Shown here in pieces: positions 28,580 to 36,174 of a stretch of DNA of 64,000 bases. Positions within the stretch are counted from its first letter, which is position 1, and each line of letters begins with the position of its first letter. Both the position numbers and the translations under genes were made by a program. This DNA comes from Candidatus Poseidoniaceae archaeon. GTDB taxonomy: Archaea > Thermoplasmatota > Poseidoniia > Poseidoniales > Poseidoniaceae. The notes under the pieces are model-generated. The model ran no database searches, was not told where the DNA came from, and saw only the letters and a list, made by a program, of their open reading frames with translations. The stretch lies in contig CALSTM010000003.1 of assembly GCA_943789275.1 (NCBI GenBank), forward strand, positions 160,489 to 224,488. The letters run 5' to 3'.

Positions 28580-29503
28580 TCAGACTTTCAGATTTGCTTG
28601 GCGAGCGAGTAATACGATTCTCATGCTGTGCTCAAGCATGGCCGCATTTGACCACGCTTGGTCGAGATTGGCTCCAACCGCATAGGCTCCCATTCCCCGA
28701 ACAACAACACAGCGCATGCCACCTTGATACAATGCTTCAGTAATTTGCTTCAGGAAGTCTGCAGGGTCTCCATCATCAGGGTCAACGATGATTACGTTAC
28801 CAATTTGCTCTTTTCCAAGAACATCGATTGGCTGAACTAAGACGAGATCTTTCTCACAACTTGCTGCGGTGGTGTATGGGCCGTGCGAGTGGATTACCGC
28901 TGCAGGGCCGCCAGTTACAGCGCTGCTTGCCAGTGCTAGAATGACTTCCAATGTCCTCCAATCTGCTGGTGCACCTCGGGGCGCCGCTTTTCCAAGGAAC
29001 CCCGCACACAAACCTCGCTCATCAAGCCGCGGTAACATTACCCTGTTTCGAGTCGACACCATGATGCCCAGATTATCTGGATGCAACATGGCGATAGTGC
29101 CCATGGTGGCTCGAATGAGTTGTTCTCTGTCGAGTTGTCGAGCGAGACGGGCAAAGTCACTTACTATGTGAGCGCCGATGACAATGTCTTCGATGACCGC
29201 AGGCGGCATTGGGGGCGTCTCGAGTTCTTCGATAACATCAACCGCTCCAGCCATTGACATTCGTAGCCGTTCGACTTCAGCATTGAGGCGCGCGATCTCC
29301 TGTTCCGCTAGCGCCTGTTGCTCGTCGGTTGGATGAACGTTCATGTCCTGAACAGGTCGTTTTTCAGCAGATTTGACCTCGTCATTGACTGGTGAAACCT
29401 CGTGTTCAGGAATACTTTCGTCTTTCTCCTCCACAACTTCAGCAGGAGGGTTTCCTTCAGGCTCTACTGGGGAGTCGGTAGGTGCTTCATCCGGAGTTGG
29501 CAT
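28580..29503 (-). CDS. class II aldolase/adducin-domain protein (C-terminal portion of a probably longer, frameshifted gene)
   Basis: AVIHSHGPYTTAAS and VVRGMGAYAVGANLDQAW match the class II aldolase metal-binding core. The N-terminal part is an acidic coiled region. The reading frame stays open upstream of ATG 29503 through PSGP repeats until a stop at 29696-29698. Confidence 0.6.
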   Translation of the reverse strand: MPTPDEAPTDSPVEPEGNPPAEVVEEKDESIPEHEVSPVNDEVKSAEKRPVQDMNVHPTDEQQALAEQEIARLNAEVERLRMSMAGAVDVIEELETPPMPPAVIEDIVIGAHIVSDFARLARQLDREQLIRATMGTIAMLHPDNLGIMVSTRNRVMLPRLDERGLCAGFLGKAAPRGAPADWRTLEVILALASSAVTGGPAAVIHSHGPYTTAASCEKDLVLVQPIDVLGKEQIGNVIIVDPDDGDPADFLKQITEALYQGGMRCVVVRGMGAYAVGANLDQAWSNAAMLEHSMRIVLLARQANLKV

Positions 29504-30123
29504 CTCTTCAACGCTCTCCTCAGTCGCTGGTTCAGTGCTTTCCCCGTCTGCTGCAGGCGGCTCAGATGGTGGGCCGGATGGTGGGCCGGATGGTGGACCG
29601 GATGGCGGACCCGATGATGGGCGGGAAGGAGGATCAGAAGGAGGACCGGAAGGCGGACCCGATGGTCGGGACCCGATGGTGGGCCGGAAGGAGGATCAGA
29701 AGGAGGACCGGATGGCGGACCCGATGGTGGAGTGGACGAGGGGGTTGAACTTTCGACCTCTTCATCGACTTGTTCAGATTTTTCATCAGCAGCCTCTTCA
29801 ACGCTTTCCTCAGTCGCTGGTTCAGTGCCTTCTCCGTCAGCTGCAGGCGGCTCAGATGATGGACCGGATGGTGGGCCAGATGGTGGGCCGGATGGTGGAC
29901 CGGATGGTGGCTGTGATGAAGGCCCAGGAGGAGGGCCACTTGGACTCGAAGGGGGTGATTCGAGGGGTGATTCTCCCTCACTTTCTTCTGTTGGGGTGGG
30001 AGCATCTTCTTCGGTTTTCTGCAACCCGCCAAGGTCGCCAAACGCAGCATCGAGTAGATTTCCGACGTGAGCATCTTTTTGTTCTTCTTTTGATTGTTCA
30101 GCAGATGTTTTTTTTCCCGCCAT
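29464..30123 (-). pseudogene. acidic PSGPPSGP-repeat N-terminal segment, apparently the 5' part of the aldolase-domain gene, separated by a frameshift within the repeat
   Basis: ATG 30123 gives MAGKKTSAEQSKEEQKDAHVG..., then (PSGP)n, an acidic spacer and a second (PSGP)n block. The frame is lost near 29665-29695, where the downstream frame (that of the 28580..29503 CDS) becomes open. Confidence 0.4.
29560..29950. repeat. two blocks of imperfect 12-nt tandem repeats (GATGGTGGGCCG and relatives) encoding PSGP on the minus strand
   Basis: Direct inspection shows ggtgggccggatggtgggccggatggtggaccggatggcggacccgatg... repeated at 29565-29720 and again at 29855-29950. Confidence 0.7.
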
Positions 30124-30191
30124 CGATAACGCCCCATACTGGCCACATGGCGCGGCTTAAATAGCGGTTGCGTAACGGAAGTCTTGCATAG

Positions 30192-30263
30192 GCCCGCTTG
30201 GTGTAGAGGTTATCATGCAGGATTGTCATTCCTGCGACCCGGGTTCAATTCCCGGAGTGGGCG
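30192..30263 (+). tRNA. tRNA-Asp (anticodon GTC)
   Basis: Cloverleaf folded by hand. Acceptor GCCCGCT/AGTGGGC. Anticodon stem CAGGA/TCCTG with loop TTGTCAT. T-arm CCGGGTTCAATTCCCGG. CCA not fully encoded. Confidence 0.7.
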
Positions 30264-30325
30264 CCTATCTCTCCCTAACATGTTGTTAAACAGTGTTTGA
30301 TATACTCACTTGAGAACATCGTGAC

Positions 30326-31289: not shown

Positions 31290-32711
31290 TCATTGATTTT
31301 TACGCTGTGAACGATACTCTTCGAGTGCCTTTGCACGCATTCCTTCAAGGATTCCAACACTGTCCGTGATATCCGAAACAGTGATGTTGATGACCCAAAG
31401 TCCATAGTTGTGTAATCCGCTGTTGATTTCATGGATTAATCCTTGATAAAACCACTCTTGCGAGCGGTTGATGTCCTTAATGGTCATTGAGCGTATAGCC
31501 TTGGGGAATCTCTCTTCAATGATGGCACGAGTTCTTGCTTCAATCTCAGCCTCCGACAGACCGTTTAATTCTCGAGCGGCCGTATCCGATAGCGGGGGCT
31601 CTTCTCCCACGCCGACAACCAACCTCACGGGAATCGTCAACGGAACACTTTCCTTTTCCGGGATATCTTGAAAGTTGAAGTTGAGCGTCATTGGCTCGAT
31701 GACACTCGGTGGGTTGGAATTACGCGTTAGTTCAAGAATTTTAATTTGGCAGGCGACAGCTCTTGCACCAACCTCTTTCAACTCCATACTCGCACCTGCT
31801 GCGAAGGCTTGAAAATTACGCCAGACAGGACGATCGAAACCTTCCCGCTCCGGGTCTTTGATATGTTCATAAACAAGCCATGTGAGAGTTTGCTCAATAC
31901 CTTTTTTCAAGTATATTTTCATCAAGTTGGCATATTCGTCATCCGATAAAGTCCGAAGATAGCGATAACGAGGGCTGGACCACTCCTCAAACGAACCGAT
32001 GACATCTGGATCGGATTCTATACCGAATCGAGCCTCGTATTTTATCTGTGTGTGGTCTTTTTTCAACGTCCCCTCGCCGGCGACTGATATTTTGATGAGA
32101 CAATCCATGTGACGCTCCATAGGCGCAGCCACCTGTGAACTCGTTTCTTGAACGGCATGGTTCTCTTCGATTGTTGGAGAAAGGTTGAGGATTTGGAATC
32201 TGAGCAATTTCAACCCATTCTCCTGCAATTCATGGCGGCAGCAGTTGTTGAGATGGTCCATAAAAAGGCCAGGCCTATGCTGATATGTGCCAGCATATCT
32301 TGGAGATTGTATGGTTTGTTGAACGCCCCGCATGAGGGTCCCACGGACATCCTCTTCCAATCGACGCTGACGAAGTTCAACCAATTTAAACAACATGTCC
32401 GGTGTGAAGTTTTGGTCATCTGAAAAGTGAATTCCGATGGAGAGGTTTGAGTCGACGAGTTCTCCTGAGTGGGCTTTTGTTCTTGAGCGAAGATTGAACT
32501 CCATCGGCTCAAGTGAAAAAACAGCGTGGCGATGGTACATGGGCAGGAGAAACTTTCGACCGTTTCTGTAGACGATTGGCGTTTGTTCTTCACTGGTCGC
32601 TACGATGAGTATCTGTTGAGGCCCGACTTTCACTGTGAACGAAATCGCCAGCAACCCGATGCCTAACAGCAGCAGAACGCTGAATACGATGGCGACAATC
32701 AACAAGTCCAT
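31290..32711 (-). CDS. SPFH/band-7 (flotillin-like) membrane protein
   Basis: ATG at 32711 (the 32741 start is GTG). N-terminal TM LLIVAIVFSVLLLLGIGLLAI followed by PQQILIVATSEEQTPIVYRNGRKFLLP, an SPFH core. Long coiled-coil, flotillin-like C-terminal half. Confidence 0.6.
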   Translation of the reverse strand: MDLLIVAIVFSVLLLLGIGLLAISFTVKVGPQQILIVATSEEQTPIVYRNGRKFLLPMYHRHAVFSLEPMEFNLRSRTKAHSGELVDSNLSIGIHFSDDQNFTPDMLFKLVELRQRRLEEDVRGTLMRGVQQTIQSPRYAGTYQHRPGLFMDHLNNCCRHELQENGLKLLRFQILNLSPTIEENHAVQETSSQVAAPMERHMDCLIKISVAGEGTLKKDHTQIKYEARFGIESDPDVIGSFEEWSSPRYRYLRTLSDDEYANLMKIYLKKGIEQTLTWLVYEHIKDPEREGFDRPVWRNFQAFAAGASMELKEVGARAVACQIKILELTRNSNPPSVIEPMTLNFNFQDIPEKESVPLTIPVRLVVGVGEEPPLSDTAARELNGLSEAEIEARTRAIIEERFPKAIRSMTIKDINRSQEWFYQGLIHEINSGLHNYGLWVINITVSDITDSVGILEGMRAKALEEYRSQRKNQ

Positions 32712-32817
32712 GCTCTTCTCACACCGGAGTTTCCTTTTCACTTTATCGCGAATACCTCAACTGATTCTGCTTTCTTTATATCCAGTTGAAGATTTACCTT
32801 TACGAGGAGAGATACCC

Positions 32818-33243
32818 ATGAGTGAAAAAACATACACCGTAGAAATTGCAGATGCCACTGGACACAGCGTTGTCGAGATGACCAAGACTGAACTGATAAG
32901 ACAAGCTTCCAACACCAAAGGAAGTTGGGTTTTTGTTGACAACAAGATGGTTGCCGCCGATGAATTGGCGAACACGAATTTTGACGACGCCCAGCACATC
33001 AGAATGGTTCCGGCCCTACAAGCTGGAAAAGACGAGAAAACATACACTGTAGAGATTGCAGATGCCACTGGACACAGCGTTGTCGAGATGACCAAGACGG
33101 ATCTCATCAACCAAGCAACCAGTGCCAAAGGCAGTTGGGTGTTCGTCGACAACAAAATGGTCGCTGCGAATGAACTTGCAGATACAGATTTCGACTCTGC
33201 TCAGCACATCAGAATGGTTCCTGCATTGCAAGCAGGCCAGTGA
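32818..33243 (+). CDS. tandem two-domain protein, each domain about 70 aa with beta-grasp (ThiS/MoaD-like) character, C-termini QAGK / QAGQ
   Basis: ATG 32818 preceded by AGGAGA. Two domains MSEKTYTVEIADATGHSVVEMTKTELI...HIRMVPALQAGK and DEKTYTVEIADATGHSVVEMTKTDLI...HIRMVPALQAGQ. The ORF-track 202-aa version starts far upstream in low-complexity sequence. Confidence 0.5.
   Translation: MSEKTYTVEIADATGHSVVEMTKTELIRQASNTKGSWVFVDNKMVAADELANTNFDDAQHIRMVPALQAGKDEKTYTVEIADATGHSVVEMTKTDLINQATSAKGSWVFVDNKMVAANELADTDFDSAQHIRMVPALQAGQ
32823..33240. repeat. recent tandem duplication, two copies of about 210 bp at roughly 80% nucleotide identity
   Basis: 32823-33030 and 33033-33240 align colinearly (gaaaaaacatacaccgtagaaattgcagatgccactggacacagcgttgtcgagatgaccaag... 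twice). Confidence 0.8.
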
Positions 33244-34794: not shown

Positions 34795-36174
34795 TCAATA
34801 GGTGATATGAACCAGTTTGTTGACTCGGTCAGACCCACTCATGATGGCATAGAAATCGTTACCACCGTTTGTTGAAGAGGAGGTGACGTATTGCACACCA
34901 TCGATGATTCCGATTTGCACAACGCTCTGGGACGCTACATCATACGAAACAAACACTTCGACACCCGCCTGCGAATCGTATGCATATCCATAGATGAGGC
35001 CATCGACGAGGTTTATCTCAAATCCACCTGCATTGGATAGGTCTTCATTTGTCGATTGCAACACTGTGGATGTTGTCATTGAATAATCGAGCGTATTGAT
35101 TTTGACCATCGAATAACCACCTCCGCTGTTTCGTACATCGAGATAGTAATGTGCGCCGTCGTATGCAGAAGTACCGGAACCCACCCCTTCGATATCTTCG
35201 ATCTGGGTATGCTTGGTTACCACTGCATCAATTGGGTTGATTGAAACAACATAGATATCAGGGTATGTGATTGTATTTTGTTGCCCTTGTCCTTGCCCTT
35301 GACTTCCGCTGTTTGTATCGTCAGAAGCATAAGCATAGATGATTTCATCCTCATGATTGTATTCCATGCCCCCGACATTATCCAATTCTGGGTGAGCGGA
35401 GAAATCAAACTGCGTCATTGTGTATTGACTCGGGTCTGATACCGTGACATGCACCAGGTAGTCGTTGTTGTTCCCGCGCATGTTGGCAAAATATTCCCCA
35501 TCGGAATAGGTCGTCACAGAGGCGACCGTCTCTATCCCTGCCAATTCAATTAATGAGGTCACTAAGCCATTGGAAGGGTCAATGGAGATGAAGTGTTCCA
35601 CATTTGTAACGCTGTCCCACGCATAGCCGTAGAGAAGATTTGTCGAACAATCGATTTCAATACCCCCGATGTTTGTGAAATCTGGGTTTGCACTGATGTC
35701 AAAAGCAATCATTGTTGAACTGTACGTTCCATCACCCGTTCCGCATTCTGTGGTTCCAGTTCCACTCCCGTCTCCTGGGTCTGTGTCGCCGTTGTCACCT
35801 GGTTCTGTGCCGCCGTTGTCTCCAGAGCCTGAACCACCGTTGTCTTCGGGGGCTGTGCCGCCGTTGTCTTCAGGGTCGGTCACATTTCCTCCGTTTCCAG
35901 AGTTGCCGTCATCTGTGTCTGAGCCATCATCGGTGTTATCGTTACCGTTGCCGGTCCCGTTCACTGGCTCTCCGTTGCTGCCATCATCCGTATTTCCATT
36001 GCCCGTTCCTGTATCGGTTCCTGAACCGCCGTTTGAGCCGTTGATGACTTCATCCGTATCGTCAATTGCCGGGTCCTCTTCGGGAACGGGTTCAACGACG
36101 ATTGGGTCTTCAATACACCCTGCTAAAGATGCTGAAAGCATGAGGAAAACAAGTAGGGCGGTGGGACGAATCAT
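34795..36174 (-). CDS. lipoprotein with long Gly/Asp/Thr/Asn low-complexity linker and repeated beta-propeller-like modules
   Basis: MIRPTALLVFLMLSASLAGC lipobox-like signal. A roughly 130-aa G/N/D/T linker. Repeated ...NIGGIEID...LLYGYAWD / NVGGMEYN...IIYAYASD / NAGGFEIN...LIYGYAYD modules. Confidence 0.55.
   Translation of the reverse strand: MIRPTALLVFLMLSASLAGCIEDPIVVEPVPEEDPAIDDTDEVINGSNGGSGTDTGTGNGNTDDGSNGEPVNGTGNGNDNTDDGSDTDDGNSGNGGNVTDPEDNGGTAPEDNGGSGSGDNGGTEPGDNGDTDPGDGSGTGTTECGTGDGTYSSTMIAFDISANPDFTNIGGIEIDCSTNLLYGYAWDSVTNVEHFISIDPSNGLVTSLIELAGIETVASVTTYSDGEYFANMRGNNNDYLVHVTVSDPSQYTMTQFDFSAHPELDNVGGMEYNHEDEIIYAYASDDTNSGSQGQGQGQQNTITYPDIYVVSINPIDAVVTKHTQIEDIEGVGSGTSAYDGAHYYLDVRNSGGGYSMVKINTLDYSMTTSTVLQSTNEDLSNAGGFEINLVDGLIYGYAYDSQAGVEVFVSYDVASQSVVQIGIIDGVQYVTSSSTNGGNDFYAIMSGSDRVNKLVHITY

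Follow-up and report, generated by a model that had tools for sequence, protein, structure and literature searches.

A Poseidoniales-specific gene with an aldolase-II fold is split at a two-nucleotide seam in a coding 12-nt repeat, probably through a consensus artefact

The window analysed here is a stretch of 64,000 nucleotides. Between its positions 28580 and 30123, the minus strand carries two overlapping ORFs in different frames, exactly where the first-pass annotation had placed them: an upstream ORF of 219 aa (29464-30123) and a downstream ORF of 307 aa (28580-29503), each with an ATG start and together sharing 40 nt. The evidence below strongly supports reading this interval as a single, ordinary marine group II archaeal gene. 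The features of the locus are as follows.

28580-30123, minus strand: single gene for a Poseidoniales-specific protein, with intact orthologous ORFs elsewhere
28613-29155, minus strand: class II aldolase/adducin-fold domain, from Pfam and structure-model matches
29246-29314, minus strand: conserved helix ALAEQEIARLNAEVERLRMSMAG, matching helix 170-199 of an orthologue model
29501-29503, minus strand: internal ATG, the start of the 'aldolase gene' according to the ORF listing and public gene callers
29504-29937, minus strand: higher-order duplication, with 144-nt copies at 29504-29647 and 29794-29937 that are 86% identical
29565-29731, minus strand: 12-nt tandem array 2, with 13.8 copies, 75% matches and 2% indels (Tandem Repeats Finder)
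29607-29666 and 29669-29728, minus strand: two 60-nt blocks, 95% identical, each of five 12-nt units coding for PSGP/PSDP
29667-29668: frame-breaking CG remnant at the seam of the two 60-nt blocks
29855-29910, minus strand: 12-nt tandem array 1, with 4.7 copies (Tandem Repeats Finder)
30019-30123, minus strand: conserved N-terminal peptide MAGKKTSAEQSKEEQKDAHVGNLLDAAFGDLGGLQ, predicted to be helical in an orthologue
30152-30165: TATA-like box GCTATTTAAGCCGC (minus-strand reading), invariant in 42 distinct loci
30192-30265, plus strand: tRNA-Asp(GTC), a divergent neighbour whose synteny is conserved across the family

The true start codon of the gene lies at 30121-30123 on the minus strand, 28 nt beyond the end of the TATA-like box, which is itself 26 nt from the 5' end of the tRNA-Asp. 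An antisense tRNA-Asp stands upstream in all 42 distinct loci. The box is probably an archaeal TATA element serving the tRNA, and it possibly serves both genes. Direct reading of the sequence 5' of the internal ATG at 29501-29503 revealed no TATA-like box; this ATG sits in G+C-rich coding repeat, and its methionine is not conserved as a start in orthologues.

The repeat region is built at more than one level. Array 2 has the plus-strand consensus GATGGTGGACCG, which codes for PSGP on the minus strand, and its copy number is strain-dependent; array 1 differs by -1, -2 and +2 units in other assemblies. The higher-order duplication is of about 290 nt, and its two 144-nt copies comprise a PSGP array and the sequence SEPPAADGE-TEPATEESVEE. 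Among near-identical strains, the copy number of the 12-nt unit varies at three positions of the tract, and in contigs that read through the tract in frame these changes always involve whole units. The tract is a real in-frame VNTR that modulates the length of a spacer in the protein.

The regularity fails at one point. The two 60-nt blocks start 62 nt apart, not 60, and repeat analysis marks the CG as the surplus. The minus-strand reading at this seam is ...ACCATCGGGTCC-CG-ACCATCGGGTCC..., and the window allele around it is ...GGGTCC-CG-ACCATCGGG.... The first-pass annotation had located the disruption at an irregular repeat unit, and the surplus CG does fall inside the unit that it quoted. 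Three-frame translation shows what the CG does to the coding sequence: the frame of the 219-aa ORF reads ...PPSGPPSGP as far as the seam and then DHRVRLPVLLLILLPAHHRV... until its stop, and the frame of the 307-aa ORF is nonsense 5' of the seam and reads PSGPPSGPPSDPPSRPSSGPPSGPP...EPPAADGESTEPATEESVEEMPTPDE... 3' of it. Each frame is thus H/R/L-rich nonsense on its wrong side. An earlier statement that both frames encode PSGP across the tract does not hold, as one frame does so only upstream and the other only downstream. Deleting the CG in silico yields one ORF of 513 aa, and restoring a full unit yields one of 517 aa.

The upstream ORF taken by itself has no Pfam match, a homology search with it gave zero matches after bias filtering, and exact look-ups of this ORF, of a 170-aa GTG ORF and of a 263-aa antisense ORF matched no record.

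Relatives carry this gene as a single ORF. In the JGI contig L003, a 505-aa ORF begins with MAGKKTSAEQSKEEQKDAHVGNLLDAAFGDLGGLQ, as does the upstream ORF of the window, and ends in an identical 307-aa C-terminus. Intact ORFs from the same MAGKK start are also found in L004 (513 aa) and L005 (533 aa), as well as in L007 and L008 (519 and 535 aa), where the C-terminus is 96% identical to the 307 aa of the window. Among the best 120 homologues, approximately two-thirds are 409-538 aa long, and these begin MA.KKTS[AV]E..., except for P0032, which is a frameshifted call.

A survey in which one genome per GTDB species was scanned gave 80 Poseidoniales loci. In 52 of these 80 species representatives the gene is an intact single ORF with the common N-terminus MAGKKTSAEQ...GNLLDAAFG; the intact ORFs span 381-641 aa (34 measured), and several have GTG starts. 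The contig ends inside the gene in another 26, including 15-16 that end directly in the PSGP tract, and the remaining two have an N gap in the repeat or (L067) a break in a different, acidic repeat. The orthologue comparison that the first-pass annotation had proposed as a check returned single ORFs whose copy number varies by whole units in near-identical strains, and its proposal of one protein of roughly 510 aa is strongly supported by the species representatives and by the 505-535-aa ORFs of near-identical strains. Residues M1, K5, T6, S7, E9, L24, A27, F28 and G29 are invariant across 36 aligned full-length members (56-86% identity), indicating that the N-terminal peptide is a selected part of one protein with the aldolase domain. 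A homology search with the 55-aa N-terminus alone returned only five short fragments.

These comparisons bear on the idea that the locus holds two independent genes, one encoding a low-complexity 219-aa protein and the other a 307-aa aldolase-like protein, or that a programmed ribosomal frameshift joins the two. Public callers do annotate a 290-330-aa 'aldolase' alone in many records, but the short calls are truncations of DNA that has one uninterrupted ORF from the MAGKK start. The 321-aa NCBI protein P0001 is such a truncated call, since the DNA of L007 and L008 holds the 519- and 535-aa ORFs, and a 474-aa ORF beginning at MAGKK is present on each of the six contigs (L009-L014) that carry the 328-aa JGI protein P0004. 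At the loci of both proteins, callers also put a spurious antisense ORF over the repeat. The nonsensical tail of the 219-aa ORF likewise argues against a gene of its own. Two separate genes were rejected on the single-ORF orthologues and because no TATA-like box could be read before the internal ATG. A programmed frameshift was also rejected: the orthologues are in frame and need none, the seam shows neither a recoding signal nor an Rfam element, and RNA structure there is not significant (fold z = 0.52). We regard either arrangement as scarcely credible.

What broke the frame in the window is best seen from the seam in other assemblies. Contigs were found through the 307-aa product, a 27-nt exact flank and close homologues, and were aligned across the tract; the seam segment was then extracted between the fixed flanks ...CCACCATCGGGTCC and ACCATCGGGTCCGCC.... 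The 307-aa product is present at 100% identity on at least eight public contigs, and one contig scan with the 27-nt exact flank gave zero matches. The seam alleles were as follows.

Window: 2 nt (CG), out of frame
L001 (ENA ERZ10646689 contig_10785, 354 kb): 7 nt (GACCGGC), out of frame
L003 (JGI Ga0115566): 12 nt (GCCATCCGGTCC), in frame
L096 (JGI Ga0206124): 12 nt (GCCATCCGGTCC), in frame
L004 (OCRI01001384): 24 nt, in frame
L005 (ERZ891134 NODE_4242): 36 nt, in frame

Partial units at the seam are confined to the window and L001. The other four are independent contigs of near-identical strains, two of which have SPAdes- or JGI-style names, and every seam allele from contigs named like short-read assemblies consists of whole units. 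The window and L001 come from essentially the same strain, with three SNPs and a single indel, at the seam, over 12,924 aligned bases. As one strain shows two different remnants, at least one of the two assemblies must be wrong at this site. Outside the repeat, the window agrees well with its relatives: against L002 (MEGAHIT-named, 99.3% identical) the CG is the sole indel in 4.4 kb, against L005 there are zero indels over approximately 6.9 kb outside the repeat, and against L004 there are only compensating 1-nt pairs near the end of the L004 contig. The window is therefore not generally indel-noisy, and the error would not be general read noise, being tied instead to one unit that is variable in the population.

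The remnants themselves are informative. No single contiguous deletion in the 12-, 24- or 36-nt alleles yields either CG or GACCGGC, and yet both are ordered subsequences of the unit GCCATCCGGTCC, a property of only 1.3% of random 7-mers. This pattern fits a consensus that kept some columns of the unit, not a single mutation. We consider it probable that the split is a consensus artefact caused by heterogeneous copy number within an in-frame VNTR. The sampled population would have been mixed in copy number at one 12-nt unit, a pile-up consensus of reads with and without that unit would have retained scattered columns of it, and the assembler would thus have left the CG at 29667-29668 as a 2-nt remnant. 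Such a remnant could arise in consensus calling, for example during long-read assembly or polishing. At the seam, the true sequence would most likely contain whole units only (zero, one or more), and the encoded protein would be about 513-517 aa long. In line with this explanation, the window and its sister assembly disagree at the seam and agree elsewhere bar the three SNPs, and the other assemblies and the orthologues restore a single reading frame.

Contigs named in the style of L001 (ENA contig_N) point in the same direction. The only other one in our sample, L015 (ENA ERZ10646592 contig_28242), has two frameshifts inside its own PSGP tract. From their names and lengths, we infer that these contigs are long-read (Flye-style) assemblies; a literature search with the ENA analysis accessions found no match.

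A real and recent frameshift in this strain, making the gene a young pseudogene or leaving an N-terminally truncated form expressed from the internal ATG at 29503, is an unlikely alternative on this evidence. The window as given is out of frame, as is L001 at the same seam, and an in-frame ATG does lie 5' of the domain. In the 97%-identical relative L096 the seam is intact, but the same disordered region is put out of frame by another lesion, a 67-nt deletion with an adjacent mismatch between two repeat blocks. As L096 is presumably a short-read JGI contig, frame breaks are not tied to one data type and could include real variants. We nonetheless read this deletion and similar breaks as further misassemblies of a region that is both duplicated and composed of 12-nt arrays; a scaffold gap falls in the repeat of L097. 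Several observations speak against a genuine lesion in the window: one strain shows two lesions, neither of which could be reached from an intact allele without several small, scattered deletions; the coding sequence flanking the window lesion is identical to that of intact alleles, with no decay; and the internal methionine is neither conserved in orthologues nor preceded, by reading, by a TATA-like box.

The first-pass annotation had left the cause open between an assembly error, a pseudogene and a slippage-prone contingency tract. The seam alleles favour the first of these, and the 12-nt unit and whole-unit variants disfavour the last. Under the contingency reading, frequent out-of-frame changes at the seam would toggle the N-terminal module, and the variable copy number at three places of the tract among near-identical strains, together with two distinct out-of-frame states at one seam, could be taken in its favour. 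A unit within coding sequence whose length is a multiple of three, however, keeps the frame under slipped-strand mispairing, so slippage cannot switch it. The in-frame alleles differ by whole units (12, 24 and 36 nt), and slippage does not account for the 2- and 7-nt remnants; the contingency reading must also contend with 52 species representatives in frame and with whole units in all seam alleles from short-read-named contigs. We judge this reading very improbable. The same low standing applies to the proposal that the seam is genuinely hypermutable in natural populations of this lineage, with out-of-frame alleles uncoupling the N-terminal helix and spacer from the domain and leaving the domain to be translated by itself from the internal ATG. 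Were that so, this uncultured archaeon would possess an on/off or modular switch mediated by a repeat.

The consensus artefact that we favour has known counterparts. Tools such as proovframe (bioRxiv 10.1101/2021.08.23.457338) and Kastor (PMC12007338) deal with gene-fragmenting indel errors in (long-read) metagenome assemblies. As in those cases, a small indel here produces two overlapping ORFs, relatives restore one, and assemblies disagree at the site; unlike in those cases, no indels occur elsewhere in the compared sequence other than the compensating 1-nt pairs near the L004 contig end. The tract resembles in-frame VNTRs of disordered linkers and surface proteins, whose unit length is a multiple of three, in its 12-nt PSGP units and whole-unit differences between strains. 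It differs from them in that the protein here is predicted to be acidic and its sequence shows no evident signal peptide or transmembrane segment. Phase-variable contingency loci of Neisseria, Haemophilus and Campylobacter use simple-sequence repeats of 1-7 nt. They share with our locus a repeat tract of variable copy number within a coding region, but the unit here is a multiple of three and the out-of-frame states are irregular partial units.

The repaired protein consists, in order, of a conserved segment (aa 1-35), a spacer, a helix, an invariant PPMPP motif and the aldolase-II domain. Its predicted pI is 4.3. The spacer, of approximately 235 aa, is 27% Pro, 17% Ser, 16% Glu and 9% Gly, holds about 20 PSGP-type tetrapeptides and has a pI of 4.05. 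The helix at 29246-29314 is likely to be a coiled coil. An AlphaFold2 model of the orthologue P0007 has a low mean pLDDT of 52 (55-82 in domain blocks) and was used only for fold class and for the layout of order and disorder; it shows a helix at 7-27, an unstructured stretch at 28-169, a long helix at 170-199 and then an alpha/beta domain.

The domain was identified by both sequence and predicted structure. PF00596 (Aldolase_II) matches aa 117-297 of the 307-aa ORF (E = 2.6e-12; 47.5 bits against a cutoff of 22.2) and covers model positions 3-182 of 183. A Foldseek search with the P0007 model returned YgbL, FucA and AraD at E-values of 3e-9 to 1e-6 with TM(target) of 0.55-0.65, and also matched adducin in the spectrin-actin complex. 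With the 307-aa ORF as query, phmmer found no match in the PDB, and with a full-length profile low-complexity matches (huntingtin, Mediator) dominated; a domain-only profile aligned to Thermus FucA 2fk5 (E = 3e-4). The NCBIfam model NF006413 (PRK08660 'aldolase' equivalog) scored 65.5 bits, below its curated cutoff of 203.

In E. coli FucA the zinc ligands are H92, H94 and H155, and the catalytic acid/base is E73. The H-x-H motif is present in the window as HSH (aa 205-207; 28883-28891) and is matched in the alignment with 2fk5. The equivalent of the third zinc-ligand histidine, by contrast, is Met271 (28691-28693), with RGMG in place of RGHG in 2fk5, and the family reads RG[K/M/R/N]G at this position of the alignment. 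Among 136 unique family domains, the first histidine never varies, Y or F replaces the second in 21 (15%) and the third position is N, K, M, R or L but never His. The region equivalent to E73 aligns poorly to FucA; its counterpart may be a conserved P-x-[D/E]-W-R motif. The first-pass annotation had described an aldolase/adducin-like catalytic domain; the PF00596 domain is there, but the word 'catalytic' is not secured, given that the third zinc histidine is absent.

Sequence and fold therefore place the protein in the PF00596 superfamily, alongside FucA, AraD, YgbL and the adducin head, but it is not a canonical Zn-dependent aldolase. It differs from FucA-type Zn aldolases in lacking the third ligand, and from class II aldolases more generally in that the domain is fused to a long disordered N-terminal region and a conserved helix. 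A fold without the canonical three-histidine metal site makes binding or scaffolding more likely than classical Zn aldolase activity, and, by analogy with adducin heads, the domain may have such a role. The family is clade-restricted and Poseidoniales-specific. It is also isolated in sequence space: 23 of 1.84 billion representatives match at E <= 1e-30, after which matches drop to E of about 1e-8 and are ordinary aldolases of approximately 190 aa. Remoter members keep the disordered N-terminus and the helix, while their H-x-H motif becomes increasingly degenerate and some retain the third histidine.

Since the frameshift is best treated as an assembly error in need of correction, it matters little in itself. 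The repeat, in contrast, is a systematic hazard: about one-third of species-representative contigs end inside the gene, and several assemblies are frame-broken. Gene callers, including NCBI MAG annotation, routinely report a product of only about 300 aa and place a spurious antisense ORF over the repeat. Through these truncations and spurious ORFs, databases misrepresent a family that is conserved across marine group II archaea. In this uncharacterised family, a conserved N-terminal helix and a VNTR spacer precede a coiled coil and an aldolase-II fold whose metal site is incomplete. As it is probably not a classical aldolase, labels such as 'fuculose-1-phosphate aldolase / ribulose-5-phosphate 4-epimerase' are unfit for metabolic reconstructions.

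The 12-nt tandem repeat that encodes PSGP within the disordered spacer of gene 28580-30123 is a recurrent assembly breakpoint among metagenome-assembled genomes (MAGs) of Poseidoniales. Among 80 loci representing one genome per GTDB species (L016-L095), the contig ends within the gene in 26, with 15-16 of these ends falling exactly in the PSGP tract. Other frame-breaking lesions were found in the same disordered region of three further assemblies:

L096, ~1100-1250: frame-breaking 67-nt deletion
L015, 1500-1800: two frame shifts within the PSGP tract
L067, ~2200-2300: frame break in an acidic repeat of the EETPEPVVEE type, in a FRAM18 MAG

Public gene calls shorten the family. On contigs of relatives (L003, L007, L008, L009-L014 and L096), an internal ATG or GTG is taken as the start codon, which leaves truncated proteins of about 300-330 aa; the NCBI annotation of the MAG GCA_028097065.1 is among the sources of such calls. 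The DNA of all of these contigs except L096, which carries its own 67-nt frame break, contains a single intact ORF of 474-535 aa. Public annotations of the same contigs also call an antisense ORF of 85-190 aa across the PSGP repeat; these calls are spurious.

Two further ORFs in the window bear repeats. ORF 32635-33243 (plus strand, 202 aa) contains a 210-nt tandem duplication (32827-33221; 1.9 copies, 82% identical) coding for two small-domain copies of ~70 aa (EKTYTVEIADATGHSVVEMTKT...HIRMVPALQAG), and no Pfam hit is on record for the product called at this position in L001, a second assembly of essentially the same strain. The 459-aa product of ORF 34795-36174 (minus strand) begins like a signal peptide or lipoprotein (MIRPTALLVFLMLSASLAGC) and has an acidic, G/N/D/T-rich N-terminal region encoded in part by a 24-nt repeat (35770-35877; 4.5 copies), across which an antisense ORF is open.

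At the seam between two 60-nt repeat blocks of gene 28580-30123, the CG remnant creates a near-palindrome, TCGGGTCCCGA (29658-29673). This is probably meaningless, because the local RNA fold is no more stable than that of shuffled sequences (z = 0.52).

Upstream of the gene lies a putative promoter element:

30152-30165: TATA-like box GCTATTTAAGCCGC, in the stretch that separates the start of the gene from the divergent tRNA-Asp

The box is invariant in the same interval in 42 of 42 distinct related loci. Its spacing is consistent with an archaeal promoter serving tRNA-Asp, and this promoter is possibly bidirectional.

The aldolase-fold domain of the protein lacks a canonical metal site:

28613-29155, minus strand: aldolase-II domain without the canonical His3 metal site

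Across 136 family members, the position corresponding to the third His holds N, K, M, R or L and never His, and the second is replaced by Y or F in 15%. JGI labels for the family, which include 'ribulose-5-phosphate 4-epimerase/fuculose-1-phosphate aldolase', are probably functional over-annotations.
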